From the IMG/VR virus record IMGVR_UViG_3300028966_000062: DNA of 64,000 nt. One strand, 5' to 3'. Source of the DNA: a virus. This document shows, one piece after another, positions 930 to 45,794 of this stretch (position 1 is its first letter; each line of letters begins with the position of its first letter). Position numbers and translations under genes: made by a program. Below the pieces are notes generated by a model. That model searched no databases and was not told the origin of the DNA. It was given only the letters and a program-made list of their open reading frames with translations.

Positions 930-958
930 TTGACAAAATCAGTAGTATCCTGTATTCT
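930..958 (+). promoter_or_regulatory. sigma70-like promoter (TTGACA-17nt-TATTCT) embedding reverse copy of the 21-nt motif
   Basis: TTGACA at 930-935, 17-nt spacer ending GTATCCTG, TATTCT at 953-958; drives gene at 1047. Confidence 0.55.
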
Positions 959-965
959 ATAGCTA
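945..965 (-). repeat. 21-nt conserved motif copy R1 (GTATCCTGTATTCTATAGCTA on + strand)
   Basis: reverse complement TAGCTATAGAATACAGGATAC matches consensus; forms inverted repeat with copy at 1005-1025. Confidence 0.7.
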
Positions 966-1004
966 GAAAGGGCAGTCCGTCATAGGACTTTTATTTTTAC
1001 CATA

Positions 1005-1025
1005 TAGCTATACAATACAGGATAC
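1005..1025 (+). repeat. 21-nt conserved motif copy F1 (TAGCTATACAATACAGGATAC)
   Basis: consensus TAGCTATAnAAyACAGGATAC ~12 nt upstream of SD of gene 1047. Confidence 0.7.
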
Positions 1026-1046
1026 AAAGAAGGAGAGTCAACTGCT

Positions 1047-1595
1047 ATGGCTATGTACAAAACTAAGAAAGATGCAGCTTATGCATGGATTCAGGAGTTT
1101 AATGCGATTCCTCAGAGCGTTATTGAAAAGCTCGCCAAGGTCGATTTGGAAGAGAATGGTGAAGGCATTACCGAAATCACGCCGCCGTCTTGCTGTGATC
1201 ATGTCTATATCTTTAGCGGTGACCACTATGGCAAAAATGGTGAGATTCGGAGCTACAACAAAGATGACAACACTTACAAAATTTGTCTCGACGGCACTGG
1301 CGAGGAAGTTGATGTCAGAGAAGATGATTTTGAAGTCGAGCGTGACGACTTCTTTCCGATGTGGGGAACGATGTGGCAGTTTGGCAATTCGTGTGATAAC
1401 TGGTGGCTTGAAAATCATCTTCAGGAAATGGCAGATTGCGGATTCCGTATCTATAAGCAAGAGGATTTTGAGTACGTTTTCGGCATTGATGGTTGTGGCT
1501 ACGACTTTTACGAATCTCATTGGATTCCGCTTTATGAAAAGCGTGGATTCCATTGGGATGATGAGACTGTAAAGGAGCTGGAAGAAAATGCGTAA
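1047..1595 (+). CDS. hypothetical acidic protein (182 aa)
   Basis: ORF with GAAGGAGAG SD; no recognisable domain. Confidence 0.6.
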   Translation: MAMYKTKKDAAYAWIQEFNAIPQSVIEKLAKVDLEENGEGITEITPPSCCDHVYIFSGDHYGKNGEIRSYNKDDNTYKICLDGTGEEVDVREDDFEVERDDFFPMWGTMWQFGNSCDNWWLENHLQEMADCGFRIYKQEDFEYVFGIDGCGYDFYESHWIPLYEKRGFHWDDETVKELEENA

Positions 1596-1827
1596 GACGT
1601 TGCTTGAACGACTTTTGGATGCCGGATATCCGAAAGCAGAAATTTATCATCATATGTCCGACCTTTATGTTTTTGTAACACCGTTGACTACAAAAATTAT
1701 TTCTGAATGGTGTGATGAAAATGGGTATACGATGAACTTTCATTGTGCAAAATTCGTGGATCAGATTACGGGGAACATGATGTACGACTGTGTTTTTCAG
1801 TATTATGAGGTGGAAGAAAATGACTGA
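1588..1827 (+). CDS. hypothetical protein (79 aa)
   Basis: overlapping start/stop with upstream gene; SD GGAAGAAAATG. Confidence 0.5.
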   Translation: MRKTLLERLLDAGYPKAEIYHHMSDLYVFVTPLTTKIISEWCDENGYTMNFHCAKFVDQITGNMMYDCVFQYYEVEEND

Positions 1828-1981
1828 TATTCAGGAAAAGATGTGGGACGTGCTGGTTGAGATGTCCGGTGAGGATGTTGCAAGAGCGTTTGCAAATTTC
1901 TTTGGTAATCAGCTTTTGAACGAGGATTTCCATCAGTTTTTGGTTGATGAAGGTTATATGGAAAGCGAGGATGAAGAATGA
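1820..1981 (+). CDS. hypothetical protein (53 aa)
   Basis: ATG 1820 after GGAGGTGGAAG; track ORF 1790 N-terminus likely spurious. Confidence 0.45.
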   Translation: MTDIQEKMWDVLVEMSGEDVARAFANFFGNQLLNEDFHQFLVDEGYMESEDEE

Positions 1982-2217
1982 TCATTGATTCTATTCTTGA
2001 CCGTAAGGACGGCAGACACTACAGTGCTCATGATTTCTATCTTGAGGTCAGGAAATATGAGCGTTTGGGTGTTGGGACAAACGGCGAGGATATTTCTATT
2101 GCAATGGATTACGGTGATAACAAAGATGTGCAGCGTGTTCTGTGTCAGTATATCCAGCGCAATGGATACCCGGCAGATATTGAGGACTACATAAGAAGTC
2201 AAGTCTGGGTGGTATAA
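1978..2217 (+). CDS. hypothetical protein (79 aa)
   Basis: ATGA start/stop overlap with upstream gene. Confidence 0.5.
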   Translation: MIIDSILDRKDGRHYSAHDFYLEVRKYERLGVGTNGEDISIAMDYGDNKDVQRVLCQYIQRNGYPADIEDYIRSQVWVV

Positions 2218-2317
2218 GCAGCAGATGCTAGGTGATTAGCGGTACTAGGGCAGACATAACCGCTACCAATGCGAAAGCATGAACGAATACACACATGAAA
2301 ATAAAGGAGATGGTGCT

Positions 2318-2521
2318 ATGAAAGTGGGGACATTGCTTAATCTGTTTGATGATTGGAACAAATATATCATCATCAACGACAATAGTTTGAATCGTCTGTA
2401 TAATGCACGAACCAAAATCTTTGAATTTATGGACGAAAAAGAAAAGCATAAAGATTTACTCGGCAAAGAAATCGTATCGTTTGGACTTTACGACGATGAT
2501 TTCTGCGTAAGAGTGAAATAA
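2318..2521 (+). CDS. hypothetical protein (67 aa)
   Basis: ATG 2318 after AAAGGAGATGG. Confidence 0.45.
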   Translation: MKVGTLLNLFDDWNKYIIINDNSLNRLYNARTKIFEFMDEKEKHKDLLGKEIVSFGLYDDDFCVRVK

Positions 2522-2534
2522 AGGAGATAGCATT

Positions 2535-2726
2535 ATGGATAAAGAATATAACATTCCTGAATTATACGACAAGTACGGTCTCAAATATGAGATGAATTAT
2601 GATGAGATTTGCTCTTTACTTCTCAAGAGAATTAAGGAAGACCCTAATTTTAACAACTATGTAAGGGCCGACTTGATTGATAAGCTGGGCTGGATTCACG
2701 ACACGTTAATTGATGAAACGTGGTAA
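2535..2726 (+). CDS. hypothetical protein (63 aa)
   Basis: AAAGGAGATAG SD. Confidence 0.45.
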   Translation: MDKEYNIPELYDKYGLKYEMNYDEICSLLLKRIKEDPNFNNYVRADLIDKLGWIHDTLIDETW

Positions 2727-2744
2727 ATAAAAGGAGTGTTAGGT

Positions 2745-3035
2745 ATGAAGAAGTTTAATTCGACCTCAAATAAAGGATTCAATATGACTTTTGCAAATGG
2801 TATTACTGCAAGCGTCCAGTGGGGAGCTGGGAATTACTGCGATAACTATTTTAGTAAAGACTTCTCTTTCTCAAAAGAAGCAAGTTCTAATACAGCAGAA
2901 GTGGCCGCATGGAATGAAAACGACGAATGGGTTACAAATAAGTTCTGCGACACCTGTGATGATGTTGCTGGGTATCTCTCCCCAGATGAAGTGTTGCAGT
3001 TTTTGAATAGCTGTGCAAATTACAAAACGGCTTAA
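2745..3035 (+). CDS. hypothetical protein (96 aa)
   Basis: ATG 2745 after AAAGGAG. Confidence 0.5.
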   Translation: MKKFNSTSNKGFNMTFANGITASVQWGAGNYCDNYFSKDFSFSKEASSNTAEVAAWNENDEWVTNKFCDTCDDVAGYLSPDEVLQFLNSCANYKTA

Positions 3036-3070
3036 AATCATGCTTTTACAATGACTAGGGAGATTACAGA

Positions 3071-3274
3071 ATGAAACCATTAAGAGATAATCCTATCGAA
3101 GAAGGAATAGATGCTTTCTTTGAAGAAAAACAAAGACTCGAAGAAGAAAAGCAAAAACTCGAAGAAGAAATCAGAGATTACGAACAGGATTATTTGGACC
3201 GATATTATGATTGGTTAGAGGAGGAAGAACAAGAGTGTCGTTTAGAACTTCTTAATGACCTTTACAATGACTAA
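3071..3274 (+). CDS. hypothetical acidic coiled-coil protein (67 aa)
   Basis: E/K-rich repeats EEKQ; SD GGGAG. Confidence 0.45.
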   Translation: MKPLRDNPIEEGIDAFFEEKQRLEEEKQKLEEEIRDYEQDYLDRYYDWLEEEEQECRLELLNDLYND

Positions 3275-3286
3275 GGAGGTTACATT

Positions 3287-3718
3287 ATGACCTTTGAACA
3301 GTACAAGAAGAATCGTCCATTCTTTTCTGATCCGTACTATGTGAATATTGTAGAAAGAGTAGAAGAACAGTTCTTCTCTATTCCGGCAGAAAAAATTCAC
3401 GATACAGAGAACGAACTTCCTCATAAACTTAATTTTGGAACTCTCGGTGAATCAAAATATCTTTCTGTTCCTTGTATTGTATTTATGAGTGATGGCACAG
3501 AGTATGGAACGTATGTTGATATCGCTGGTTATTATTGTTATCAAGATAATCAGTGGTATTTTGATCGCATTGATGTTAGTAGAACGCTGTCTCTGCATGA
3601 AGTGTATAGAAGAAAACCGACAGTTTTGAAGTGGGTTCCGTTGAAGATTGTCTGTGACGAAGACGAAAGAGATGATAGATGTTTTCAATACAATGGAGAA
3701 CATTATAAAATCATATAA
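3287..3718 (+). CDS. hypothetical protein (143 aa)
   Basis: SD TAAGGAGG. Confidence 0.55.
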   Translation: MTFEQYKKNRPFFSDPYYVNIVERVEEQFFSIPAEKIHDTENELPHKLNFGTLGESKYLSVPCIVFMSDGTEYGTYVDIAGYYCYQDNQWYFDRIDVSRTLSLHEVYRRKPTVLKWVPLKIVCDEDERDDRCFQYNGEHYKII

Positions 3719-3738
3719 ACAAAAGGAGCTGGTACAAT

Positions 3739-3972
3739 ATGACCGAAAAAGATAAACGGATTCTAAAATATGCAATCGATAATCTTGTTCTTAGAGAAAT
3801 CGAAGTATGCAAAGGAATTTGTAAAAGCAACCCTGAAAACAAAGCGAACCGTGAACGAGATCGTGAGTTGATTATTTATGGTATTCACAGCGTTTTATAT
3901 GAGGTTGAACGTCTTGAAGAACAGGAAAAGGAGATGCTGGAGAAAGTCAAACATGAAGTGGTTCAGTTTTGA
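3739..3972 (+). CDS. hypothetical protein (77 aa)
   Basis: SD AAAGGAG. Confidence 0.5.
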   Translation: MTEKDKRILKYAIDNLVLREIEVCKGICKSNPENKANRERDRELIIYGIHSVLYEVERLEEQEKEMLEKVKHEVVQF

Positions 3973-3986
3973 TTGAGGTGATAAAA

Positions 3987-4758: not shown

Positions 4759-4770
4759 GATAGGTGGAAT

Positions 4771-7072: not shown

Positions 7073-7091
7073 TAAAAGGGAGATTTTAGAT

Positions 7092-7958
7092 ATGGGAAAA
7101 CTGTATTGCTACGATAACGAAACCATAAAATGGAATCACGATGGTAAGGAATATTGTGTACATATTCAGCAAGACAATTCAAATGATATTGGCCCACGAG
7201 ATTACGACCATGATTCTGTGATGGCGTGCTTTGGAAGGTATAAATATCTCGGTGACAAAATCGAATATGACAGTCCGAAAGATTTCTGGATCAGTAATGC
7301 TTATGGTCATTGTAGTGATGAAGAAATCTTTGAAGCACTCAAAGAACGGAAACTTATAAACATTTATGTTGACTATTATCAGGACATGGAAAAAGACGAA
7401 TACTTTTATGCTCTTTGCGACATGGATAATGGAGATTGTTTTGTTGACGGTCTTGCAGAAGACGAGGTAGTGTCCGAAGCAAAATATTGGTTGGAACCGG
7501 AAGATTGTATGATTTTGCTGGATAGCAAAATGGTATGGGTTCCGCTTTATGTTTATGACCATAGCGGTATTTCAATGAGCTGCGACGAAAGAACATATCC
7601 TTTTAACGATCGTTTTGACTCTAGTATGGTCGGTTGGATTGTGACTACGATGTGCAAGAATCATACTCCTGCTGATGAAATGAAGGCAACACGAGTGATG
7701 CAGCAGGAAGTAAAAGAATATAACGATTGGCTTCATGGTGAAGTTTATTGTTATACGCTATACGAACAAAACGGCGACGACGGTGACGAATTTGATGATT
7801 GGATTGAAATTGATTCCTGTGGCGGATTTATCGGTGACAATACCATTGAAAATGGAATGACTTACAATGTCGGAAACGGTATCGAAGAAGCTATTAAGAA
7901 TGAAAACTATACGACAGGAACGGCAAAGAAAACTGTGGTCGTAAAATGGGAATTCTAA
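7092..7958 (+). CDS. hypothetical acidic protein (288 aa)
   Basis: SD AAGGGAG; no domain recognised. Confidence 0.6.
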   Translation: MGKLYCYDNETIKWNHDGKEYCVHIQQDNSNDIGPRDYDHDSVMACFGRYKYLGDKIEYDSPKDFWISNAYGHCSDEEIFEALKERKLINIYVDYYQDMEKDEYFYALCDMDNGDCFVDGLAEDEVVSEAKYWLEPEDCMILLDSKMVWVPLYVYDHSGISMSCDERTYPFNDRFDSSMVGWIVTTMCKNHTPADEMKATRVMQQEVKEYNDWLHGEVYCYTLYEQNGDDGDEFDDWIEIDSCGGFIGDNTIENGMTYNVGNGIEEAIKNENYTTGTAKKTVVVKWEF

Positions 7959-9973: not shown

Positions 9974-10182
9974 TTATGAATATCAACGAAATTCGTTACT
10001 TTGAACGTAAGATGACCGACAGTGCATTTGATGATGCTGTGAAGTACGATCCAGCGATTGCAGTTCGTGCAAAGCGAGCATGGGTTATAAAAATACAAGG
10101 GCTGATTTCGTTCCGGGAGTACATTTCTTGCTTGCAAGATATTACCGGCAACGCACGAATCTTTTGGAAGTATCAGTTTTAA
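9970..10182 (+). CDS. hypothetical protein (70 aa)
   Basis: SD GAGGAGAAATGATTATG. Confidence 0.4.
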   Translation: MIMNINEIRYFERKMTDSAFDDAVKYDPAIAVRAKRAWVIKIQGLISFREYISCLQDITGNARIFWKYQF

Positions 10183-10196
10183 GAGGAGGAAACAAA

Positions 10197-10457
10197 ATGT
10201 TTTTGCTTATCAATATTTATATTGCAAAAGGTGAGAATTCATTTCTCCCAGAAGTTGTTTATAAAAAGGGTTTTAATACGATTCTTGAGGCGGAAAATGA
10301 AATGAACAAACAAGTGGACGATATTCTTGTAAATCATTATTGTAAATATTATAAAGATGAAAACGGTGAACAGAATTTTAGTGTTTTGCGATTAAAAGGT
10401 GATATTCGTATTGATGCTTGTGACGTATACGACTGGTGGAAAATCGTAGAGATTTGA
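10197..10457 (+). CDS. hypothetical protein (86 aa)
   Basis: ATG 10197 after GAGGAGGAAAC; track ORF 10080 N-terminal extension likely spurious. Confidence 0.45.
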   Translation: MFLLINIYIAKGENSFLPEVVYKKGFNTILEAENEMNKQVDDILVNHYCKYYKDENGEQNFSVLRLKGDIRIDACDVYDWWKIVEI

Positions 10458-10486
10458 TAAAACAGTTCTTCTAAGGAGATAGTAAT

Positions 10487-10738
10487 ATGAATGAAAAGAG
10501 TTTTGAAATTGACACGCCTATTGGAAAACTGGTTGCTGAAGCTGGTGGAGATTATAAAGATTATCCAGGAATTTACATTTATCTTCAGAGGGAAGATGGC
10601 GTTCAAATTGATTTGTCTTGTACGGAAATTGATAAAGAAACTGGCGAAGGCAGAGTCTTTGTCTGGGAAAATACGTCTATAGATGAATACACCAAGATGA
10701 TGCGATGGACTAAAGAACAACTTATGATTAAAGAGTGA
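10487..10738 (+). CDS. hypothetical protein (83 aa)
   Basis: SD TAAGGAGATAG. Confidence 0.5.
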   Translation: MNEKSFEIDTPIGKLVAEAGGDYKDYPGIYIYLQREDGVQIDLSCTEIDKETGEGRVFVWENTSIDEYTKMMRWTKEQLMIKE

Positions 10739-10757
10739 GTGTAGGGAGTAAACAAAA

Positions 10758-12065
10758 ATGACTACTAATAATCCTATGACCGTAATAACCTCTAAGCCCT
10801 TTGGTGTACTGAATGTGGATGTGTACCAGAATGACAAGCATCAGTATTACATGACTCGTGAACAAATTGGTGCAGCGCTAGAGTACAATAATCCTAATAA
10901 GGCAATTCAAAACATCCATGTTAAGAATACGGATCGTCTTGACCCTCTTTCAACATTCCTCAAACTGAGGAAAGTTGAGGGCGGAATCACGAAGGAACGT
11001 GAATATATTGTTTACAGTTTGCGTGGTGTTATGGAAATCTGCCGTCTGTCACGTCAGCCGAAAGCAGATGCGTTCATGGATTTCTGCTGGGACATCATGG
11101 AATCCTTGATGCGTGGTGACACCGTTCTGGCTACGCCTCAGATGGATGCTGCACTGAGTAAGGAGTTCATTGATGTAAGACTTCACGCTCTGTTTGATAG
11201 CATGAAGAACCTTCAGAGTGAACTTGATTCCACTCGCAAGGAGCTCAGTGACCAAATTGAGGAAGCTCGTGCTACTAGCAACGAAGCACTGAATGTAATC
11301 AGCAGCGTGTCTCAGAGTGTCCATCAGATTAAGGATAAGCAGATGGATAATTCGATTCGTGCTAAGAGCTATACTCCTCGCAATGTGTTTCGGGATGAAA
11401 TGAGTGACTGGCGTAAAGATTTGTATAGCAAGATTGGTGTGATTGCAAATACTAAAGGTTACACAAATAAAGAAACGCTTCACAAGATCTATGAATATCT
11501 GAATCGTAATTATGGTTTTGTTTTGGAAGATGCTCGTGCAAAGTATATTAAGAGAACGAATCGTAGTGGAAAAATTTCAACAATCGACATTATCGAAGAG
11601 GATTCCACTTGGAAATCTATCATGGAGGCTGTTGTTGCAGATATGTACGTAGCATCTATCGAGCGTCTGCATCAGAATCAGAATGAACTTCGTCCGACTC
11701 CAAAGGCTGTCGAAGCAGTTTCTGAAACAAATATGAACGTTACTCCTGTGATTGATGTGGTAGCTAAAGAAGTCGTTAACAAAAAACTTAAGAACAAGAA
11801 ACAGAGTGAGACGGCGAAGATCCTTTTTCCAATCATGATGCCTCTGGCGGAAAAACTTGGTGACAAGCCACAATATAAGCACACTTACACTCTGATTTAT
11901 GAGCGTATTGGCTATAAGAAAATGAATAATTTGTTTGTGGCTTACGAAAAGGCACACGGTAAGGCACCGCATCCGAAGACTAAGGTGTTTATCGAAAATG
12001 AAAAGAATCTCGCGCTATTTAAGAAGACTGTGAAGCAGCTGATGAAAGGACAGGAGAATAAGTAA
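10758..12065 (+). CDS. Bro-N domain-like protein (antirepressor-like), 435 aa
   Basis: N-terminal ~120 aa pattern FGVLNVDV...REQIGAALEY...AI...YIVYSLRGVMEIC resembles Bro-N/KilA-N DNA-binding modules (inference from motif memory). Confidence 0.45.
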   Translation: MTTNNPMTVITSKPFGVLNVDVYQNDKHQYYMTREQIGAALEYNNPNKAIQNIHVKNTDRLDPLSTFLKLRKVEGGITKEREYIVYSLRGVMEICRLSRQPKADAFMDFCWDIMESLMRGDTVLATPQMDAALSKEFIDVRLHALFDSMKNLQSELDSTRKELSDQIEEARATSNEALNVISSVSQSVHQIKDKQMDNSIRAKSYTPRNVFRDEMSDWRKDLYSKIGVIANTKGYTNKETLHKIYEYLNRNYGFVLEDARAKYIKRTNRSGKISTIDIIEEDSTWKSIMEAVVADMYVASIERLHQNQNELRPTPKAVEAVSETNMNVTPVIDVVAKEVVNKKLKNKKQSETAKILFPIMMPLAEKLGDKPQYKHTYTLIYERIGYKKMNNLFVAYEKAHGKAPHPKTKVFIENEKNLALFKKTVKQLMKGQENK

Positions 12066-12689
12066 ATGTATGTAATCTCGAATGGTCATAACTATATTAT
12101 GAAACGGAAGGGAGGTCGAATCTGCGCCACCTGTGATATCAATCTGGCATTGCAGTTTAAATCAAAGGGGCTGGCAATCTGTGAAATCAATAAGCTTCCC
12201 GCTGGGTATAAGAACGGACGCTATGCACCAAAATCTATGGATGAAGCTACCATCGCAGGCAAGAGTCCGAATATAACGGCTCCGGCTGTAAAGCCAAATA
12301 CATACGCATTTCACATGGAAGATTCTGAATGGCTGATAGAGTTGAAGAAAAATCTTGAGGTCACAGACAAAACAATGACCAGCCTCGATGATTTATATGC
12401 CAAAGTCTACAGTGATTTAACTGCGGCTAGCGATGAGATTGCCGATATTGAACACGCAATTGAGTTCAAAACAGTGAATGCAGCGCAAGGTTATCAGCTT
12501 ATGGCGGAACTTAAAAGAGCTCGCCGGAAGCGCAGAGAAGCTAAGGATGCAAAGCTTCTGCTTGAGATTGTGATGGACCATCGAAATAATGATGATTGGG
12601 GCCATGGTCGGCTTGGGGCTGCTATTGAACAGCTTGACTCGCGTCAGTTTACTCCGAAGGTTCGTAACGATCTGTTTGAAAAGAATTGA
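12066..12689 (+). CDS. hypothetical protein (207 aa)
   Basis: ORF abutting upstream stop. Confidence 0.5.
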   Translation: MYVISNGHNYIMKRKGGRICATCDINLALQFKSKGLAICEINKLPAGYKNGRYAPKSMDEATIAGKSPNITAPAVKPNTYAFHMEDSEWLIELKKNLEVTDKTMTSLDDLYAKVYSDLTAASDEIADIEHAIEFKTVNAAQGYQLMAELKRARRKRREAKDAKLLLEIVMDHRNNDDWGHGRLGAAIEQLDSRQFTPKVRNDLFEKN

Positions 12690-12700
12690 GGTATATAAAA

Positions 12701-12838
12701 ATGACGATTCATATTTTACACGAATGTATCGACTCTAGCGATTTTTACGCAGAAGGTAATATTATTACCATTAACAAAGATAAAGAGAAGTTGTCTGAAA
12801 AGATGTTCTTGCTTTATAAGGACTGCCGGGATTCGTAA
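12701..12838 (+). CDS. small hypothetical protein (45 aa)
   Basis: ATG 12701; weak SD. Confidence 0.25.
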   Translation: MTIHILHECIDSSDFYAEGNIITINKDKEKLSEKMFLLYKDCRDS

Positions 12839-12958
12839 GGAAATAGTGTGAAACAGGACGAAACGTGGTGTGATTCATGTAAGGTGTCCGTTGTTAGTGG
12901 GAATTCTGGAAATTACTATCGACATCATTGGAAAATTGACAAGTTTGAGGTGTAAATT

Positions 12959-13183
12959 ATGATGGTATATGGAAACATAACGTGTAATCGCTGTGGCATT
13001 ACATGGTATGGTCCTAAATGTGGAAAGCTCTATTGTGATGAATGTCGTAAGATAATAAGAAATGAGGCATCCATTCGATGCAAGAATAAAAAGAAACATA
13101 AACCAACATTTGTTGAGATTGCAAGAATGGCAGATGCTAAAGGATTATCTTACGGTAAGTATTGCTTGAAGTATGGAATTTGA
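12959..13183 (+). CDS. zinc-ribbon protein (CxxC...CxxC)
   Basis: CNRCG...CGKLYCDEC motif. Confidence 0.45.
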   Translation: MMVYGNITCNRCGITWYGPKCGKLYCDECRKIIRNEASIRCKNKKKHKPTFVEIARMADAKGLSYGKYCLKYGI

Positions 13184-18779: not shown

Positions 18780-18833
18780 ATGGCATCATCTAAAATTTTA
18801 AACTTTTACAACAACAAAAAGATGTATAATATA

Positions 18834-18861
18834 TTGACTAAAACAAAAAGATGTGTATAAT
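18834..18861 (+). promoter_or_regulatory. strong sigma70-like promoter TTGACT-16-TATAAT, second of two tandem copies of AAAAAGATGTGTATAATATAT
   Basis: direct 21-nt repeats at 18816-18836 and 18846-18866 each carrying TATAAT. Confidence 0.5.
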
Positions 18862-18903
18862 ATATCTTGAAAGTTGTCTAAATGAGTGGAGGGCGGTGTT
18901 TTA

Positions 18904-19249: not shown

Positions 19250-19278
19250 TTGACTTCTGAAATGGTATCCTGTATAAT
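19250..19278 (+). promoter_or_regulatory. sigma70-like promoter TTGACT-17-TATAAT embedding reverse copy R2 of 21-nt motif
   Basis: TTGACT 19250-55, spacer ends GGTATCCTG, TATAAT 19273-78. Confidence 0.6.
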
Positions 19279-19285
19279 ATAGCTA
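19265..19285 (-). repeat. 21-nt conserved motif copy R2 (GTATCCTGTATAATATAGCTA on + strand)
   Basis: matches consensus in reverse orientation. Confidence 0.7.
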
Positions 19286-19321: not shown

Positions 19322-19741
19322 ATGGACAACAATATTGACCCAAAGGTCGGAGAGGTTTGGTTGGTCGATTTGTCCAATGCAACAGGTCATCAGCAGCGCG
19401 GTATTCGACCGTTCGTTGTGACAAGCAACAACAAGCGCAACTTCTTCAGTCCCACAATCAAAGGGAATCCGTTGTCTTCCAGAATATACAAGCGTTCTCC
19501 GGTTCATGTTCTACTCTCGAAAGAAGACTGCGATTTCCTAGAGGTTGATAGTATTGTTCTTTGTGAAGAGACTGATACACTTAACAAAGGACAGTTCATC
19601 AAAAAGCTTGGTGTCTTGTCTGAGCGTCATATGAATATGATCGCAATGGCAAGATGCAAGGATGAACCGTTTTTACTCGCAGCATTCCTGAGCGGCGTAC
19701 AACATACCATGGAATTTCAAAATTTTGCCGCATTTGCTTGA
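19322..19741 (+). CDS. MazF/PemK-family endoribonuclease toxin-like protein
   Basis: GEVWLVDLSNATGHQQRGIRPFVVTSN aligns with MazF GDLIWVDFDPTKGSEQAGHRPAVVLSP; later VLCEETDTLNKGQFIKKLG; no obvious antitoxin partner. Confidence 0.65.
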   Translation: MDNNIDPKVGEVWLVDLSNATGHQQRGIRPFVVTSNNKRNFFSPTIKGNPLSSRIYKRSPVHVLLSKEDCDFLEVDSIVLCEETDTLNKGQFIKKLGVLSERHMNMIAMARCKDEPFLLAAFLSGVQHTMEFQNFAAFA

Positions 19742-19794: not shown

Positions 19795-20721
19795 ATGCTT
19801 ACTGAAGAAAAGATCAAAGCTTTTGCTGAAAAGTATTCTGATAGAAGCGGTGAGTTTGTTGTATCGACGCTTAACCATGTTCTGGGTTACGAGGCTGAGC
19901 GTGGGTATGAGTTGTTTGACTTCACAAAAGATGATTTCGTAAAGATGTTTGCCAAATATAATTGGGTGAACTCGAGTCGTTCGTTTAAAAATGTGAAGTC
20001 AATAATCACAGGCTACATCAAAAGCGAAAACAAAACAAGCATGTATGATCTGGCTGACTTTTCAGAGAGCGATGTAAGCGCAGACAATATGTATGCGGAT
20101 AAATACTTTGCATCAGTTGATGAGTTTGTTGACTTCTTAAATAAGTATGAAGAGCCATATCAGATTCGTATGAACGTGATTGCTGCACTGTACTGGATTG
20201 GCCTTACTTCTGAAGAAGTTTCTAACCTGACGATTAACGATGTCGATTTTGAATCTTGTACTGTTCTTGATAAGACAGGTGTTGATGCAAAGTTGATGGA
20301 TATTATTAAGCAGTGTTATGAAATGAAACAGTATGACGCTCCCAATAAGGGAGGGTATAGGGCATTCTATGTCATGAATGGTGATTACATCATTCGTAAA
20401 ACCGAGGATAGTATCGGTGCAGACAGTGACCCAAAGATGTCTGTGCATACAATTCATACCTATTTTATGCGGTTGAATAACATCCTCGAAAAAAGATATC
20501 ACTCAAAGGCTTTAGATCGAAGGCATCTAACCAGAAACGGCGAATACGTGAAGGTCTACGACTACTGTAAGAATAATCCAGAATTTAATCTTGCAGAACT
20601 TAGTTTCGGAAATGGTAAAGACCCTCTTGCAGACATTATCGGAAGAAAGTGTAGCAAGGTTGCCTACATTAGCTTCAGACAAGGATACAAAGGTTGGGTC
20701 GAATATTTCCATAAAAATTAA
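19795..20721 (+). CDS. hypothetical protein (308 aa), weak integrase core-binding-like N-terminus
   Basis: SD AAGGAG; no catalytic motifs recognised. Confidence 0.55.
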   Translation: MLTEEKIKAFAEKYSDRSGEFVVSTLNHVLGYEAERGYELFDFTKDDFVKMFAKYNWVNSSRSFKNVKSIITGYIKSENKTSMYDLADFSESDVSADNMYADKYFASVDEFVDFLNKYEEPYQIRMNVIAALYWIGLTSEEVSNLTINDVDFESCTVLDKTGVDAKLMDIIKQCYEMKQYDAPNKGGYRAFYVMNGDYIIRKTEDSIGADSDPKMSVHTIHTYFMRLNNILEKRYHSKALDRRHLTRNGEYVKVYDYCKNNPEFNLAELSFGNGKDPLADIIGRKCSKVAYISFRQGYKGWVEYFHKN

Positions 20722-20726
20722 AAACA

Positions 20727-20750
20727 GGGGGCTTCGGCTCCTTGATTTTA
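20727..20750 (+). terminator. rho-independent terminator-like hairpin (UUCG tetraloop) followed by T-rich tract
   Basis: GGGGC-TTCG-GCTCC then TTGATTTTA. Confidence 0.45.
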
Positions 20751-20756
20751 ATACGT

Positions 20757-20777
20757 TAGATATATAATACAGGATAC
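20757..20777 (+). repeat. 21-nt conserved motif copy F2 (TAGATATATAATACAGGATAC)
   Basis: upstream of gene 20808. Confidence 0.65.
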
Positions 20778-20807
20778 TTAAAAATAGTATTTGAATGGAG
20801 AATAACA

Positions 20808-23316: not shown

Positions 23317-23339
23317 ACGTTAGAATTTTGAGGTGATTT

Positions 23340-24076: not shown

Positions 24077-24161
24077 GCCAAGGTGCTGCAAATGGGAGAC
24101 AGGGCGAGCCCAAACCTCGCTGTGGAAACACATGCGGTTTCGAATACCGTCCTTGGCACCA
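24077..24161 (+). tRNA. tRNA-Leu (anticodon CAA), class II long variable arm
   Basis: acceptor GCCAAGG/CCTTGGC, anticodon arm GCGAG-CCCAAAC-CTCGC, variable hairpin TGTG-GAAA-CACA, T-arm GCGGT-TTCGAAT-ACCGT, discriminator A + CCA; position 33 is C (unusual). Confidence 0.55.
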
Positions 24162-24200
24162 GAGTCCGAATATTCATTTATTAGATGTTGGAGGCATTTT

Positions 24201-25097
24201 ATGAAAAAGATTGATAAACTTACAAAAGAAGAAATTGAGCAAGCTTTTGAGGAAAGCAAAAGTTAGGCTGCGGTTGCGGAGAAGCTTGGATATTCAAAAA
24301 ATGGTGGAAGTACGAATCACGTACTTCAAGATTGTGCAAAAGCGCACAATATAAATACTTCTCATTTCACTGGGCAGGGCTAGAATAAAGGGAACGTGGA
24401 TTTGTCTCGTTTTAAAAATGGAAGACGAATAAAGGATTTAAAATCCGCACTTCTTTCTATCAAACCATATAAGTGTGAATGTTGTGGAAACTCTGAATAG
24501 ATGGGCAAACAGATTCCATTGCAAGTACATCATATTGACGGAAACCACATAAATAATGAGTTAGACAATCTTCAGTTGCTTTGCCCGAATTGTCATGCAC
24601 AAACTGATAATTGGTGCAAAAATAATATCGGGAAATACAAGACTGTGAGCGATAAAGATTTTCTTGATGCGTTAAAAACAACATCAACTATAAATGCCGC
24701 TCTTGAAAAAGTTGGAATTTATTATTCTGCGAGAGTGTGGTATGACAAAGCAAGGCAACTAATGATTGAAAACAACGTAACTCAAATTCCACGTGAAAAG
24801 GTTATCCGTGAGAAAAAAGAAAGAAAAAGAAGAAAAATCAAATATTGTTCAATATGCGGAAAAGAAATGAGTCCGCGTGCAAAAGGATGTCTCTGTAAAA
24901 ATTGTTTAAAAGGAAATCCTTACAGTAAACGCATTGATTTTCCTGATAAAGAACAATTGATGGTAGACACAGCTTCAATGTCCTTTCAAGATGTTGGAAG
25001 AAAATATGGAGTATCAGGAAATGCCATACGTAAATGGTGCAAGTATTATGATTTACCATACAGAAAATTAGATATGAACAGTAAAGAGGAAAATTAA
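24201..25097 (+). CDS. HNH homing endonuclease with N- and C-terminal HTH-like regions; single reading frame containing three in-frame TAG codons (24264, 24381, 24498)
   Basis: KCECCGNSE-TAG-MGKQIPLQVHHIDGNHINNELDNLQLLCPNCHAQT HNH signature; no frameshift between segments; TAGs sit where conserved Trp is expected. Confidence 0.7.
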
Positions 25098-25141
25098 CGT
25101 TGATAAAAAAGAAGCTGTAAAAAAATACAGCTTCTATATAT

Positions 25142-25229
25142 GCCGCAGTGATGGAGTGACATACATTTCCCGCTTAAACCGGGACGCCTGAAATATGGAT
25201 CGTGGGTTTGAATCCCACCTTCGGCACCA
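25142..25229 (+). tRNA. tRNA-Leu (anticodon TAA)
   Basis: acceptor GCCGCAG/CTTCGGC, anticodon arm TCCCG-CTTAAAC-CGGGA, long variable arm, T-arm GTGGG-TTTGAAT-CCCAC, ACCA end. Confidence 0.6.
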
Positions 25230-25232
25230 TAT

Positions 25233-25306
25233 CGAGAACGTGGTGTAATGGTAACACGCCTGCTTTGGGAGCAGGAGTTGCAGTTCAAATCTGACGTTTT
25301 CGACCA
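25233..25306 (+). tRNA. probable tRNA-Pro (anticodon TGG), noncanonical T-stem
   Basis: acceptor CGAGAAC/GTTTTCG + A + CCA; anticodon arm CCTGC-TTTGGGA-GCAGG; T-loop TTCAAAT but only 3 bp T-stem. Confidence 0.35.
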
Positions 25307-25411
25307 GTTGGTTTCCCAACATGCTTTTCATAAAATACCTTTCCTATTATTCTTGGCTCTCCAAAAATGGAGCAATAGGACACAGCAAGCCAAGTATATA
25401 ATGCGTCGTAG

Positions 25412-25485
25412 CCAAGCGGTTAAGGCAGGGTCCTTTGAAGTCCCGATTGCGAAAGTTCGATTCTTTCCGGCGCAATTTATATGCC
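25412..25485 (+). tRNA. tRNA-Gln (anticodon TTG)
   Basis: acceptor TGCGTCG/CGGCGCA, D-arm GCC-AAGCGGTTAA-GGC, anticodon loop CTTTGAA, T-arm GAAAG-TTCGATT-CTTTC. Confidence 0.55.
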
Positions 25486-25492
25486 ACAGTGG

Positions 25493-25567
25493 TGGAATTG
25501 ACCTACACATCTATTTTAGGGGTAGACGCCGAAAGGCTTGCGAGTTTGAGTCTCGCCTGTGGCACCA
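25493..25567 (+). tRNA. tRNA-Leu (anticodon TAG)
   Basis: acceptor GCCACAG/CTGTGGC + A + CCA; anticodon arm TCTAT-TTTAGGG-GTAGA; long variable arm; T-arm GCGAG-TTTGAGT-CTCGC. Confidence 0.6.
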
Positions 25568-25666
25568 CGGTCATAGAATGGTTGCGTACCGTTTGTTGAT
25601 CTCCTTTACTATTATTCCCAGCTCGCCAGTGATGGTGCAGTAGTGTTTTGTAAGCTGGGTTTTCAT

Positions 25667-25741
25667 GCGGCGGTCGTACAACGGCTAGTACATCAGCCTT
25701 CCAAGCTGAGGATGAGGTTTCGACTACCTTTCGCTGCTCCA
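25667..25741 (+). tRNA. tRNA-Gly (anticodon TCC)
   Basis: acceptor GCGGCGG/TCGCTGC, D-arm GTAC-AACGGCTA-GTAC, anticodon arm TCAGC-CTTCCAA-GCTGA, T-arm GAGGT-TTCGACT-ACCTT, T + CCA. Confidence 0.6.
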
Positions 25742-25930
25742 ATCTCGTATGGGTAGGATCTTTGGCGGTCAGATCTGGCCGCGCCTGTGCGAGATACCAC
25801 CCCGAAAGGGGCGAGATATAGGAAATGTGCATCGCTGTTATTCCTTCCTCGTCTATATGATATAGATGCAATAGTGTTTTATAAGGAAGGTGCCCAGTTG
25901 AATAGTTGCAGCTATTTAACTGGTTTTTAT

Positions 25931-26011
25931 GGGACATTATCTCAATTGGTTAGAGAACTCAGCTCATAACTGAGCATATGTATCACGGTTCAAGTCCGAC
26001 ATGTCCCACCA
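25931..26011 (+). tRNA. tRNA-Met (anticodon CAT; initiator/elongator/Ile2 not resolved)
   Basis: acceptor GGGACAT/ATGTCCC + A + CCA; D-arm TCTC-AATTGGTTA-GAGA; anticodon arm CTCAG-CTCATAA-CTGAG; T-loop TTCAAGT with weak T-stem. Confidence 0.55.
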
Positions 26012-26114: not shown

Positions 26115-26135
26115 TAGCTATATAACACAGGATAC
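26115..26135 (+). repeat. 21-nt conserved motif copy F3 (TAGCTATATAACACAGGATAC)
   Basis: immediately upstream of SD AAAAGGAGGTGG of the C5-MTase gene. Confidence 0.7.
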
Positions 26136-30485: not shown

Positions 30486-30506
30486 TAGCTATGCAATACA
30501 GGATAC
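30486..30506 (+). repeat. 21-nt conserved motif copy F4 (TAGCTATGCAATACAGGATAC)
   Basis: upstream of SD TAAGGAG of gene 30522. Confidence 0.7.
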
Positions 30507-42328: not shown

Positions 42329-42340
42329 GAGGGTTATAAA

Positions 42341-45300
42341 GTGGCAGATAAAAAATTCAATGAAAATATGATCCGTTGCTACATCAGGATAAAACGAGTC
42401 TTTTATCCGAAAGATGGGAGGGAGGTGGAGCCCGGCGGCTTCGCCACTTTCTCTGCCGAGGTGGTAAAAGTCAAGCAGGGAAATCCTGTTATGAGTCGAT
42501 ACAGTGACCTCCGGTTAAAGGGCAACGTTCCTAGCCTCGATATGAATAAAACTTATTCGTTCTGTGGTGAGTATGTTCATCATGAAAAGTTTGGTGACCA
42601 GTATAAAATCATTTATATGAATGAGTTTCAAGAGATTACTGACCCGGAAGAACAGAAAAGCTTTCTCCATTATATCCTGACCGACCATCAGTTTGAGATA
42701 CTTTATGAAGCATTCGAAAATCCGTATGAGATTATCAAGAATGGTGATATCAAGTCGCTTTGCACTGTTAGTGGTATTACGGAAGGCAGAGCTCAAAAGA
42801 TCATTGATACTTATGAAAACAACATTGATAACAGTGAGGCGTACACAAAGCTAATTGAGTACGGTCTGACCCCTAGTGCTATTGAAAAGCTTGTCCGTCA
42901 ATATCATGGTGCAGACACTCTGGTGAGAAAGATTGAAGAGAATCCTTACGTCCTGATTGACGATGTGTATGGCATCGGCTGGAAGAAGGCTGACGCTCTA
43001 GCTCTGAATATGGGGTTGAAACACAATTCGCAATTTAGAATTGAAGCTTACGTCATGCACTTTCTTGCTGGCCGTGCCGAAGAAGGCAACTCTATCATCT
43101 CGGCAAACCAGACAATCAATAGCTGTATTAAGGAACTTGATTTGAATGAGGGTGACCAAGAAGTCATCAAAAGGGCACTTTTCCATTTGCATGATGCTCG
43201 TGAAACGCTTTGGTGGAGCGATGACCGTCAGGAATTTGCTTTAACTAGAGTGTGGAATCTGGAAGATAGTATTGCGAAGGAAATCAAGCGTCTGGCGGAT
43301 GTTCCTGTTGAGCCGATTGGTCGAAATATGGATGCAGCAATCAATGAGGCCGAGGATGAACTTGGTATCGAGTACACTGAAGAGCAGAGAGATGCTATTA
43401 AAAAGGTATGCTCTAGCAACGTCTGTATCTTAACAGGTTACGGCGGATGCCTTGATGCAGAGATGGAGTTCTTTAATGGTATCCAATGGAAAAAAATAAA
43501 AGATTATGTTAAGGGCGACAAAGTTCTTCAATATAATGAAAATGGGACTACAACGCTTGTTGAGCCTGAGAAATATGTAAAATTTAAATGTGAATATCTA
43601 TATCACATGAAAAACAAGTCGGGCAGTATCAATCAACTATTGAGTGCAGAGCATAATGTTGTTTACTTGACCAGCAAAAACAATTTAGCTAAAATCCCAA
43701 TGTGGGAGTTGTATCAAAGAAATGTTAAACGAAAGTCTGGGTTTAACGGACATTTTATAACAACGTTCAATTATGATGGTCCAGGAATCGATTTGAGCGA
43801 TGCTGATATTAGACTAATGTGTGCTGTTATTTGCGATGGGTCGTTTTTGAAGGATCATAAATCAGCTTGGTGTAGAGTAAACGTAAAAAAAGAGCGAAAG
43901 AAACTTCGCATGAGAAGACTTCTTTTGGAAAGTGGTAGATACTTTGATGAGCATCAGTGGAATCCAAAAGACTTGGAATATTCGAACTTTGTCTTTTATG
44001 CTCCAAGAAAAGAAAAAAGATTTACTTCGTATTGGTATAGCTGTAATCATCATCAGCTAGAGGTGATTTGCGATGAGATTCTAAATTGGGACGGTCACGT
44101 AAAAGAGGGGAGACGGAAAGATTTTAGTACACTGATTAAAGAAACGGCAGATTTTGTTCAGTTCGCATTTTCTTCTTGTGGTTATCGTTCTGTTGTACAT
44201 GAATCAAATATTGAACGGCACGGTAGAATGGTCACAGAGTATAATGTTCATATTGTGCAACACTCGAATGGAAAAGTTTCTCTTATGACAAAAGGCAGTA
44301 AAAGCGATATTGATATTGTTCGTTCAAGCGATGGATATAAGTATTGTTTTACGGTTCCGTCTCATATGTTTCTGATAAGATATAATGGAAGAATTTGTGT
44401 CACAGGCAACACCGGTAAAAGTACCGTTGTCGCTGGTGTTCTAAAGGTTCTTCGTGGTAAGTCTTTTGCTCAGACTGCACTTTCTGGTCGTGCCGCTGCT
44501 CGTATGCAGGAGATTACTGGTCAGGACGGTAAGACTATTCACCGTCTTCTTGGATATGACATCGAGAACGGTGGGTTTGTTCACGATAAGGACAATCCTC
44601 TGGATGAGGACATTATCATTCTGGATGAGACCTCTATGGTTGGTGCTCAATTGTTTTACGATTTGATTCAGGCAATCGAAACTGGCAAGCGATTCATCAT
44701 GATTGGTGATGACGGCCAGCTTGAGAGTATCGGTATGTGTAACATCTTCAAGGATATGCTTGCATCTAAGGTTGTTCCTGTGGCTCGTTTGACTAAGATC
44801 CATCGTCAGGCAGCCAAGTCTGCAATTATCACGGAGAGCATTAAGGTTCGTAACGCTACGCAGTTGGTTCCTTATGGCTGGGCTGGCAGTGAGATTCGTG
44901 GTGAACTTCGTGATTTGGAGCTTGATATCTATAAAGACGCAAGTGAGTCATTCAATCACATCATCAATCAGTACCGTACCTTATATAATAAGGTAGGGAA
45001 TGATAGTTCGAAGATTCAGATTGTACTTCCACAGAAGCTGCGTGGCAGTATCTGCACCTACGAAGTCAATAATGCTATTCAGGAAATTGTGAATCCGAGT
45101 CGTGGTCAAGCAGAAGCAAAAGTCACAATCTATGGTGATGGCAAGGATAGGGTGTATACTCTGCGTGAGGGCGATCAGGTCATCATCAACAAGAACAACT
45201 ATGAGCTTCACACATACAATCTCAAGACAAAGAAAAAAGAAGAGAAGTGTCCGGTGTTCAACGGAAACCGTGGCATTATCCGAAAGATTGAGAGTAGTTT

Positions 45301-45634
45301 TATCCTAGTTGATTTTGACCAGTGGGGAACAATCTTCATTCCACATTACTTTGGCGGAAACAATATCTGGGCAACACTTGAGCTTGCTTATGCTTTGAGT
45401 TGTCATAAACTGCAGGGCAGTGAAGCTCCGTATGTGATTGTTGGTATGGACAACTCTGCGTACTTGATGCTGACGAGAGAATGGCTCTATACGGCCATCA
45501 CTCGTGCAAAGAAGTATTGTATGATTTGCGCCGAAACTCACGCTCTTGATCGGGCTGTAAAGACTTCGAGAGTTCCATATAAGCGGACGTTCTTGAAGGA
45601 ATTTTTACGGAAAGAATTTTCAGAAAAGCATTGA
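42341..45634 (+). CDS. RecD-like SF1 helicase carrying an intein inside the Walker A P-loop
   Basis: ILTGYGG-[intein]-TGKSTVVAG, IILDETSMV, FIMIGDDGQLESIG, CHKLQGSEAPYVIV, YTAITRAKK. Confidence 0.8.
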   Translation: MADKKFNENMIRCYIRIKRVFYPKDGREVEPGGFATFSAEVVKVKQGNPVMSRYSDLRLKGNVPSLDMNKTYSFCGEYVHHEKFGDQYKIIYMNEFQEITDPEEQKSFLHYILTDHQFEILYEAFENPYEIIKNGDIKSLCTVSGITEGRAQKIIDTYENNIDNSEAYTKLIEYGLTPSAIEKLVRQYHGADTLVRKIEENPYVLIDDVYGIGWKKADALALNMGLKHNSQFRIEAYVMHFLAGRAEEGNSIISANQTINSCIKELDLNEGDQEVIKRALFHLHDARETLWWSDDRQEFALTRVWNLEDSIAKEIKRLADVPVEPIGRNMDAAINEAEDELGIEYTEEQRDAIKKVCSSNVCILTGYGGCLDAEMEFFNGIQWKKIKDYVKGDKVLQYNENGTTTLVEPEKYVKFKCEYLYHMKNKSGSINQLLSAEHNVVYLTSKNNLAKIPMWELYQRNVKRKSGFNGHFITTFNYDGPGIDLSDADIRLMCAVICDGSFLKDHKSAWCRVNVKKERKKLRMRRLLLESGRYFDEHQWNPKDLEYSNFVFYAPRKEKRFTSYWYSCNHHQLEVICDEILNWDGHVKEGRRKDFSTLIKETADFVQFAFSSCGYRSVVHESNIERHGRMVTEYNVHIVQHSNGKVSLMTKGSKSDIDIVRSSDGYKYCFTVPSHMFLIRYNGRICVTGNTGKSTVVAGVLKVLRGKSFAQTALSGRAAARMQEITGQDGKTIHRLLGYDIENGGFVHDKDNPLDEDIIILDETSMVGAQLFYDLIQAIETGKRFIMIGDDGQLESIGMCNIFKDMLASKVVPVARLTKIHRQAAKSAIITESIKVRNATQLVPYGWAGSEIRGELRDLELDIYKDASESFNHIINQYRTLYNKVGNDSSKIQIVLPQKLRGSICTYEVNNAIQEIVNPSRGQAEAKVTIYGDGKDRVYTLREGDQVIINKNNYELHTYNLKTKKKEEKCPVFNGNRGIIRKIESSFILVDFDQWGTIFIPHYFGGNNIWATLELAYALSCHKLQGSEAPYVIVGMDNSAYLMLTREWLYTAITRAKKYCMICAETHALDRAVKTSRVPYKRTFLKEFLRKEFSEKH
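43448..44410 (+). mobile_element. intein (321 aa) with LAGLIDADG homing-endonuclease domain
   Basis: starts Cys (CLDAEMEFF), block B SAEHNVVYLT, LAGLIDADG-like DIRLMCAVICDGSF, ends ...RICVTGN followed by +1 Thr; removal restores GYGGTGKST. Confidence 0.7.
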
Positions 45635-45659
45635 CAATTATATTTGTATCCTATATAAT
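45631..45659 (+). promoter_or_regulatory. sigma70-like promoter TTGACA-17-TATAAT embedding reverse motif copy R3
   Basis: TTGACA 45631-36, TATAAT 45654-59. Confidence 0.6.
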
Positions 45660-45666
45660 ATAGTTA
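45646..45666 (-). repeat. 21-nt motif copy R3 (variant GTATCCTATATAATATAGTTA on + strand)
   Basis: reverse orientation, CAGG to TAGG variant. Confidence 0.55.
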
Positions 45667-45704
45667 TAAAAAGTCTCCATCCCGGAGGCTTAAAATTCTC
45701 TCTT

Positions 45705-45725
45705 TAGATACATAACACAGGATAC
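45705..45725 (+). repeat. 21-nt motif copy F5 (TAGATACATAACACAGGATAC)
   Basis: followed within 10 nt by terminator hairpin. Confidence 0.65.
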
Positions 45726-45734
45726 GAGAAAGAG

Positions 45735-45768
45735 AAGGCTTGCTCGTAACGACAAGCCTTTCTTTATT
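45735..45768 (+). terminator. rho-independent terminator (AAGGCTTG / CAAGCCTT stem, TCTTTATT tail)
   Basis: 8-bp perfect stem, 10-nt loop, U-rich tail. Confidence 0.6.
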
Positions 45769-45773
45769 AGCCA

Positions 45774-45794
45774 TAACTATATAACACAGGATAC
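45774..45794 (+). repeat. 21-nt motif copy F6 (TAACTATATAACACAGGATAC)
   Basis: immediately upstream of SD GCAAGGAGG of ligase gene. Confidence 0.7.

Follow-up and report, generated by a model that had tools for sequence, protein, structure and literature searches.

A putative operator box for an MrpR/YopR/SroF-family repressor in a probable SPbeta-like phage of Faecalibacterium

Which protein reads a long, asymmetric sequence that recurs in both orientations across a phage genome, lying over promoters at some sites and directly before ribosome-binding sites at others? This question is raised by a stretch of 64,000 nt from the IMG/VR virus record IMGVR_UViG_3300028966_000062 (hereafter the window; positions refer to the whole window), in which the 21-mer TAGCTATAnAAyACAGGATAC occurs nine times. 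We propose, with a probability of roughly 70%, that this 21-mer is the putative operator box of the master repressor of the phage, a 308-aa protein of the MrpR/YopR/SroF family encoded at 19795-20721. The proposal is built on sequence and predicted structure, and the evidence that carries it consists of the positions of the boxes relative to promoters, the homology and fold of the candidate reader, the synteny with phage SPbeta, and the association between box type and repressor allele.

Scanning the window with the consensus returned three exact matches and nine matches with at most three mismatches (Table 1), while 100 dinucleotide-preserving shuffles returned 0 matches against the nine real ones. 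A weight matrix constructed from the nine copies gave them scores of 28.9-35.8 bits, and no other site in the window exceeded 2.4 bits, a bimodal distribution without a degenerate tail. Both scans recovered all nine copies at the coordinates and on the strands listed in a preliminary description of this DNA, and the comparison with shuffled sequence, which that description had proposed, shows the element to be real. All nine copies lie in true intergenic gaps, with every long open reading frame (ORF) on the + strand, and the 21 bp comprise 16-17 near-invariant positions, conserved over the full length and without dyad symmetry. A search of related genomes, likewise suggested in the preliminary description, identified more than 100 box-bearing IMG/VR contigs of ~125-140 kb each, whose loci, oriented via GC skew, yielded 93 unique forward and 50 unique reverse contexts. 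The relatives carry ~12 boxes per genome, all inside ~60 kb of early and replication genes; these correspond to the nine window copies and three further ones, namely the pair of a module C and a copy upstream of a phage RNA polymerase (RNAP) gene. In the relatives, the 10 kb that follow the RNAP gene, with its protease and terminase genes, contained no box, and neither did the nucleotide-metabolism block at 46-64 kb of the window.

The copies fall into two classes with distinct promoter geometry. Reverse copies have TTGACA at a distance of exactly 17 nt upstream of TAT(T/A)AT, and the -10 element is formed by motif positions 13 to 8 read on the opposite strand; the invariant positions beyond the -10 include 16-21. 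T at position 12 together with TTGACA at 17 nt is present in 49 of the 50 unique contexts, the T being required by A-11 (position 2) of a sigmaA -10 element. The reverse copies in the window match the sigma70/sigmaA promoter consensus at 10-12 of 12 positions, which bears out the earlier observation that the copies at 945, 19265 and 45646 are embedded in sigma70 promoters of the form TTGACA/TTGACT-17-TATTCT/TATAAT. The forward class fails the criteria of a sigmaA promoter, since the 93 unique contexts show no conserved -35 element, as had been noted for the window; besides, position 12, the would-be -7, is C in 47 of the 93, where a sigmaA -10 needs T. Upstream of these copies lies a T-rich stretch, often a terminator tail. 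Because the full 21 bp are conserved in forward copies that are unable to serve as sigmaA promoters, the box must have another reader. Between the end of a forward copy and the core of the Shine-Dalgarno (SD) sequence there are 2-19 nt in the window, a wider range than the 8-15 nt given previously, and 2-25 nt across the relatives, and the copy at 45705, which had been placed ahead of a gene, is followed instead by a terminator-like hairpin.

The two classes are combined in recurrent modules. A reverse copy is followed by a forward copy at 59-61 nt start-to-start in 59 pairs in the relatives, with modules A and B in the window and module C in the relatives; module B has an extra forward copy 69 nt downstream, and module C sits at a strand switch with a TTGAAT-17-TGgTATAAT promoter between its arms. 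A further reverse and forward copy bracket a 1.49-kb cassette of two genes, encoding a PemK/MazF-like endoribonuclease and the 308-aa protein. This pairing invites an RNA-level explanation, in which the arms would pair into a 21-bp duplex as an RNase III-type site, or a sense copy would act as a cleavage site or translational operator, for example for a MazF-like nuclease. The module A arms do fold at -33 kcal/mol (z = -7), sense copies lie near SD sequences, and a MazF-like RNase is encoded beside the putative repressor. However, the paired arms do not co-vary, with variable positions matching at no more than the expected rate and position 10 of module B always differing; for four of the nine copies in the window there is no partner; the reverse arm would be missing from transcripts of the overlapping promoters; and the distance to the SD ranges over 2-25 nt, with no Rfam match beyond tRNAs. 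An RNA-level element is therefore regarded as very improbable, and the suggestion of translational operators in the preliminary description likewise leaves unexplained the reverse copies, the terminator-followed copy and the variable distance to the SD.

The most likely reader of the box is the 308-aa protein, which fits the earlier notion of a non-palindromic, directional site for a phage regulator layered on host-type promoters. The window protein itself gives a weak Pfam match to MrpR_N_CB together with a PHROG integrase match; with its orthologue P0186 the MrpR_N_CB match attains the Pfam gathering score, and almost every homologue carries a precomputed match to MrpR_C_cat. When a family profile (alignment A1, 37 sequences) was compared with SPbeta YopR/MrpR by hhalign, it aligned over 271 columns at 97.6% with an E-value of 2.8e-12. 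A direct BLASTP comparison of the 308-aa protein with YopR was not significant (E 1.7), so the relationship is visible solely by profile and fold comparison. The AlphaFold2 model of the protein is confident, with a predicted local distance difference test score of 88.9, and its top seven Foldseek matches in the PDB are the phi3T SroF-DNA complex (template modelling (TM) score 0.65), SroF-Sar, YopR and MrpR at E-values of 1e-7 to 1e-8, with genuine recombinases (Xer, lambda Int, Cre) beginning at 2e-4. These profile matches and the predicted structure identify the protein as an MrpR/YopR/SroF homologue with an integrase fold of core-binding (CB) and catalytic (CAT) domains. The profile gave no alignment to Cre (1.5%); among the aligned family members no Arg past the LYWxG motif is conserved, and Tyr298 and Trp301 are conserved. 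A protein-pattern scan of species-representative genomes for the repressor returned nothing. The PemK/MazF-like gene that precedes it has no obvious antitoxin, and YopM, a product of the SPbeta repressor operon, binds the MazE antitoxin of the host (PMC10516654); by analogy, this suggests a conserved link of the repressor module with MazEF-type systems.

A protein of recombinase-like fold could also use the boxes as crossover sites of invertible or shuffling segments. Two recombinase-fold genes are present, inverted pairs flank spacers of 38-40 bp as well as the 1.49-kb repressor cassette, and different genes follow module A in the relatives. Nevertheless, in none of 102 unique arm/spacer combinations is the spacer turned round with respect to the flanking sequence, dyad symmetry as in the core sites of recombinases is missing from the box, the nearest structural relatives of the protein are non-catalytic monomeric repressors, and gene order and strand are constant across the relatives, which together make crossover sites very doubtful. 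As a separate observation, module A with its promoter, hairpin and box is followed by at least four different first genes across the relatives (for example in L006, L016, L017 and L033); the boxes therefore coincide with mosaic junctions and may be recombination hot spots between phages.

The genomic setting is consistent with a repressor of the SPbeta type. The window is arranged in blocks of small early genes, a tRNA cluster, a C5-methylase gene, a replication module (SSB-like, Sak4-like, DnaB, primase, RecJ, DnaE-type PolIII alpha, RecD2 and ligase) and nucleotide-metabolism genes, and no close annotated phage was found for it. In the relatives, a strand switch lies ~7-10 kb upstream of the window start, and the leftward arm beyond it starts with a 930-aa YonO-type protein (Pfam RdRP 9e-15; tblastn to SPbeta yonO 5e-19) that has the GADFDGD motif at residue 546. 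This YonO-like RNAP gene, found at 10001-12790 of relative L115 and in 79 other relatives, is placed by synteny ~10 kb upstream of position 1 and thus outside the window. It is followed by genes for a head protease, PhoH and the large terminase, a packaging and structural arm as in SPbeta, and in more distant relatives by homologues of YonK, YonJ, YonG and YonD. Likewise, the gene order Sak4-like, DnaB, primase, RecJ, PolIII alpha is that of yorG-yorL of SPbeta. Homologues of a window protein occur on contigs of 0.4-0.8 Mb, which points to a prophage state and therefore to a temperate phage, and a close RNAP homologue and the 21-mer both occur in Faecalibacterium assemblies. By these sequence comparisons, the phage is most probably a ~135-kb SPbeta-like temperate phage of Faecalibacterium.

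The correspondence with SPbeta extends to the boxes themselves. Its master repressor MrpR (YopR), which has a tyrosine-recombinase fold without recombinase function, was shown by sequencing of affinity-purified chromatin (ChAP-seq) and electrophoretic mobility shift assays to bind the element SPBRE in ~10 promoter regions, among them those at yorE, yorM and yonP and that of the repressor's own yopM-R operon (PMC10516654). SPBRE copies that we recovered from the SPbeta sequence are long (...tAGACAAAtAcAAAaAATATGTATAta) and non-palindromic, with several directly before an SD sequence. The SPBRE at yorE lies before the replication module, as does copy 30486 here; that at yorM, which follows yorL, lies after the polymerase gene, with module B as its counterpart after the polymerase and RecD2 genes; and that at yonP precedes yonO in the yonP-yonO operon, with its counterpart in module C and the copy before the RNAP gene. 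Both systems combine a ~135-kb genome, an integrase-fold repressor or its homologue, and a non-palindromic box at ~10-12 intergenic sites in the early half of the genome, often directly before an SD and including the repressor's own operon; SPbeta is temperate, and the phage described here probably is as well. They differ in that the box sequences are unrelated (SPBRE ...ACAAATACAAAAAATATGTATA against the 21-mer described here), the recovered SPBRE copies are all in gene sense whereas three copies here are reversed as sigmaA -10 elements, the reverse/forward pairs here keep a 59-61 nt spacing, the host is Faecalibacterium (Clostridia) rather than Bacillus, and one box copy is chromosomal in the host, in contrast to the MrpR ChAP-seq peaks, which are all inside SPbeta.

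The length and asymmetry of the box find an explanation in the structure of SroF from phage phi3T, a monomer that nearly encircles DNA and makes use of 24 bp within a non-palindromic box of 26 bp (bioRxiv 10.1101/2025.11.27.690993; PDB 9RD5, 9RGL). A monomeric reader of this kind predicts a long, asymmetric site that is conserved throughout and can be used in both directions, so that binding in the manner of SroF, to which the model of the 308-aa protein is structurally closest, would account for the length and asymmetry of the motif and for its occurrence in both orientations. The phi3T group resembles the phages described here also in having several specificity types, that is, repressor alleles, within one phage group; in contrast, no Sar-like antirepressor or SOS box was identified here, with Sar not sought by profile, and the box, 21-24 bp by conservation, is not an A-tract. 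The mechanism class is accordingly already known, from SPBRE/MrpR in 2023 and the SroF monomer-box structure in 2025, and what is new is a distant member (~13-18% identical to the SPbeta protein) in another bacterial class and a very abundant gut host, together with its box sequence, the reverse box as the -10 of sigmaA promoters, the inverted pairs at fixed spacing, the two natural specificity types and the host chromosomal copy.

The assignment of the box to the 308-aa protein is further strengthened by a comparison of repressor alleles. A deep search identified three alleles, P0200, P0246 and P0247, that are 35-37% identical to that of the window and occupy the same genomic slot, with the 40 nt upstream of the repressor gene nearly identical to the window and a PemK gene that is 93-94% identical. 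Allele 1 is shared by the window and 13 relatives (84-91% identity), and in all of these the type-1 box stands at both sites flanking the gene, whereas in the four contigs with the 35-37%-identical alleles both sites carry TA(A)GTATAGTAwACAGAATTT within an unchanged architecture. The two box types differ at positions 3-4, 9-10, 17 and 20-21. Over the operon promoter, the window has TTGACT-17-TATAAT with TAGCTATATTATACAGGATAC on the other strand, while the variant contigs have TTGACA-17-TATACT with TAAGTATAGTATACAGAATTT on the other strand; past the terminator, TAGATATATAATACAGGATAC in the window is replaced by GTAGTATAGTAAACAGAATTT. At these two gene-flanking sites the box type thus changes with the repressor allele.

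In the proposed mechanism, one repressor monomer would occupy each of the ~12 boxes in the lysogen. At the reverse boxes, the repressor would cover the -10 element and spacer of strong sigmaA promoters and thereby exclude the host RNAP; these promoters would be that of module A at the head of the early block, that of module B before the ligase operon, and that of the repressor operon itself, where copy 3 would provide negative autoregulation. The module C boxes flank the promoter that would drive the operon with the YonO-like gene. The forward boxes, situated just past a promoter or terminator and just before the next gene, would act as roadblocks against initiation or read-through from upstream and would so seal the early and replication modules. 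Lambda operators are ~17-bp dyads bound by helix-turn-helix dimers at two loci. The phage considered here would share with lambda CI/Cro the overlap of repressor sites with the -10 and -35 elements of the early and own promoters, and immunity types arising from co-varying repressor and operator; it differs in the asymmetry of its boxes, their proposed monomeric integrase-fold reader and their dispersal over ~60 kb.

A different reading takes the 21-mer as the promoter of the phage-encoded YonO-type single-subunit RNAP, with forward copies giving rise to middle or late transcripts and reverse copies pitting it against the host RNAP at early promoters. The relatives do encode the 930-aa homologue with its GADFDGD motif, and in 66 of 70 relatives a sense copy stands 30 nt upstream of its ATG; the forward copies lack a -35, lie past terminators and precede genes. 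Contiguous conservation over ~20 bp is typical of single-subunit RNAP promoters, with a precedent for two-barrel RNAPs in P23-45 (gp96/gp64; PMC10770324), and the promoter sequence of YonO is not established (PMC5467207). Against this, 37 late genes alone need YonO in SPbeta, as one operon from one start site, and the SPbeta genes at the syntenic SPBRE sites are YonO-independent (PMC5467207); the late and structural arm downstream of the RNAP gene here is free of boxes for 10 kb. Moreover, the box type follows the repressor allele; L198-L201, whose RNAPs are 61% and 50% identical, have no 21-mer near the RNAP gene; and reverse copies would fire antisense into upstream genes, and copy 45705 into a terminator. 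The late-promoter region of SPbeta (the yonN-yonK gap) showed no resemblance to the 21-mer, its best score of -1.8 bits being uninformative at 25% RNAP identity. We therefore consider a YonO-type promoter unlikely. The same evidence on allele and YonO independence disfavours the alternative sigma factor or RNAP specificity raised in the preliminary description; as to the second, middle or late promoter class it had suggested for the forward copies, a sigmaA class is excluded by the C at -7 in half of them and the missing -35, and the phage-RNAP version is the less likely reading. A combination, in which the same 21-bp box serves as repressor operator and as promoter, or essential promoter part, of the YonO-type RNAP, with the two proteins competing for the site, appears quite unlikely; if true, it would provide the first promoter sequence for a YonO-class enzyme and explain the gene-sense orientation of the non-sigmaA copies, including that at the polymerase gene.

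Another possibility, that a Faecalibacterium protein uses the box as a regulatory site of the host which the phage has copied, was addressed by a scan of species-representative genomes with one degenerate pattern. This returned 56 single matches, about what chance would give for 596 Gb by our estimate. Six of the 56 represent the same Faecalibacterium locus, in F. prausnitzii ATCC 27768, F. intestinale, F. tardum and three metagenome-assembled genomes, where one full copy is kept in the leader of the gene for a type I 3-dehydroquinase (aroD). A gap of 12 nt separates this copy from the -10 of an upstream TTGACA-17-TATTAT promoter, and the SD comes after it (234-254 of L220, F. prausnitzii ATCC 27768; also L209, L211, L216, L227 and L236), and the host copies vary mainly at positions 7-10, which are also variable in the phage; the chance of such a match is an estimated ~7e-4 per genome. 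A seventh Faecalibacterium match (L228) lies inside a MutL-like ORF and was dismissed as a chance match. A primary host site is hardly probable, given one host locus against ~12 copies per phage, a box type that follows the phage-encoded allele, and a phage that encodes a homologue of a proven box-binding repressor. For the aroD leader, the link of box type to a phage allele leads us to favour a possible action of the prophage repressor on a host gene over copying of a host site by the phage. The aroD-leader contigs all end 160-450 nt beyond the box, past tandem strong promoter-like sequences, and a repeat such as an rRNA operon may follow there.

Several observations weigh against a simple repressor operator. 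The nine boxes that do not overlap a sigmaA promoter are all in gene sense, including those of the leftward arm, and most lie 2-9 nt from an SD; this bias counts against the operator because a pure operator needs no such orientation, although SPBRE shows the same. Several forward copies have no recognisable upstream promoter, so that read-through is the presumed target of their repression, and the fixed 59-61 nt spacing in three modules with unrelated spacers is left without explanation by the model. The co-variation sample comprises four short contigs with three alleles at the gene-flanking sites only. One of these contigs, L260 (sample ERZ15610570), is a mosaic whose shared genes are 36-96% identical and whose other recombinase-like gene is 48% identical, and scans of viral and metagenome collections with the variant box returned unrelated chance matches only and no family members. 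Finally, the 18 SOS-box-like sites show no enrichment over the expected 18.2, so that no SOS-box signal of a Sar-type antirepressor was seen, a Sar homologue not having been sought by profile.

Table 1. Coordinates of the box copies and associated features in the window.
Feature	Position	Strand	Remarks
sigmaA-type promoter, module A	930..958	+	TTGACA-17-TATTCT; -10 and 3' half of spacer within the reverse box
Box copy 1, reverse	945..965	-	TAGCTATAGAATACAGGATAC; covers -10 and spacer of the 930-958 promoter
Short terminator-like hairpin and T-tract between the module A arms	974..999	+	Stem 974-989, tail TTTATTTTTA
Box copy 2, forward	1005..1025	+	60 nt start-to-start from copy 1; before the SD of the first early-block gene (ATG 1047)
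sigmaA-type promoter of the PemK/MazF-like and repressor operon	19250..19278	+	TTGACT-17-TATAAT
Box copy 3, reverse	19265..19285	-	Overlaps -10 and spacer of the repressor operon's own promoter
PemK/MazF-like endoribonuclease gene	19322..19741	+	Pfam PF02452 3.8e-19; phrog_1936; co-transcribed with the repressor gene
Gene for the 308-aa MrpR/YopR/SroF-family integrase-fold protein, proposed box reader	19795..20721	+	Profile and fold matches
Terminator-like hairpin and T-tract 3' of the repressor gene	20725..20752	+	Fold of 20722-20807
Box copy 4, forward	20757..20777	+	Past the terminator, upstream of the 688-aa gene
Box copy 5, forward	26115..26135	+	Past the tRNA cluster, upstream of the C5-methyltransferase gene
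Box copy 6, forward	30486..30506	+	Head of the replication module (Sak4-like, DnaB, primase, RecJ, PolIII alpha); syntenic with SPBRE at yorE
sigmaA-type promoter, module B	45631..45659	+	TTGACA-17-TATAAT, 12/12 consensus matches
Box copy 7, reverse	45646..45666	-	Overlaps -10 and spacer of the module B promoter
Box copy 8, forward	45705..45725	+	59 nt from copy 7; hairpin next, no gene
Strong terminator-like hairpin between copies 8 and 9	45735..45760		T-rich runs on both strands
Box copy 9, forward	45774..45794	+	69 nt from copy 8; DNA ligase SD 2 nt downstream

Further promoter-like sequences were observed in the window. A tandem duplication at 18818-18865, AAAAAGATGT(G)TATAATATAT, has TTGACT 16 nt upstream of one copy and is boxless, so strong early-region sigmaA-like promoters are not all associated with a box; another strong sigmaA-like promoter lies at 12936-12963. 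The sequence (C)GTTAGAA(T) occurs on the + strand at 23319, 51749 and 55709, directly upstream of the SD sequences of an RNA ligase gene and two nucleotide-metabolism genes, and may represent another, late promoter class, its three sense intergenic copies being too few to assess. The seven tRNA genes at 24077-26011 (Leu-CAA, Leu-TAA, Pro, Gln, Leu-TAG, Gly, Met) adjoin an HNH endonuclease frame at 24201-25097, a continuous ~299-aa reading with three in-frame TAG codons and zero frameshifts (for example FTGQG*NKGN, CCGNSE*MGKQIPLQVHHIDGNH). The TAG codons are identical in L090, the sole relative covering the region (99% identical), and the tRNA cluster contains no suppressor tRNA; the ORF could be a pseudogene or a case of local recoding.

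Other observations concern the relatives. Past the rightward arm of module C, L018 has ~200 nt without an ORF (7125-7320) and without an Rfam match; for comparison, an unannotated non-coding RNA follows the YonO-dependent start site in SPbeta. The cultured Enterocloster phage PMBT24 (L195/L196, OQ326496.2) has a YonO-like RNAP, a syntenic replication module and a XerD-like gene; a scan found no 21-mer in it, and it has an intergenic repeat of its own, TCAATTCGTAAAGTAAAAT, in both orientations at 1081, 2164, 5037, 73409, 73603 and 87075, which may be an analogous repressor box. In L198, which has the 61%-identical RNAP, an AT-rich palindrome at 7085-7150 with arms ending TATATAATACATTATAA has only the central TATATAATACA in common with the 21-mer and may be an origin-like structure.

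Taken as a repressor operator, the 21-mer provides an operator map and a candidate immunity determinant for the widespread ~135-kb SPbeta-like prophages of Faecalibacterium, a bacterium that ranks among the most abundant of the human gut, and would carry the recently described mechanism of monomeric integrase-fold repressors beyond the phages of Bacillus into Clostridia. With their different alleles, the two box types would offer a natural specificity swap through which DNA reading by this fold can be studied, and the box in the aroD leader raises the possibility that a prophage repressor controls a host gene. Should the minority reading of a YonO-type promoter prove right, the element would bear on the promoter of YonO-type polymerases.

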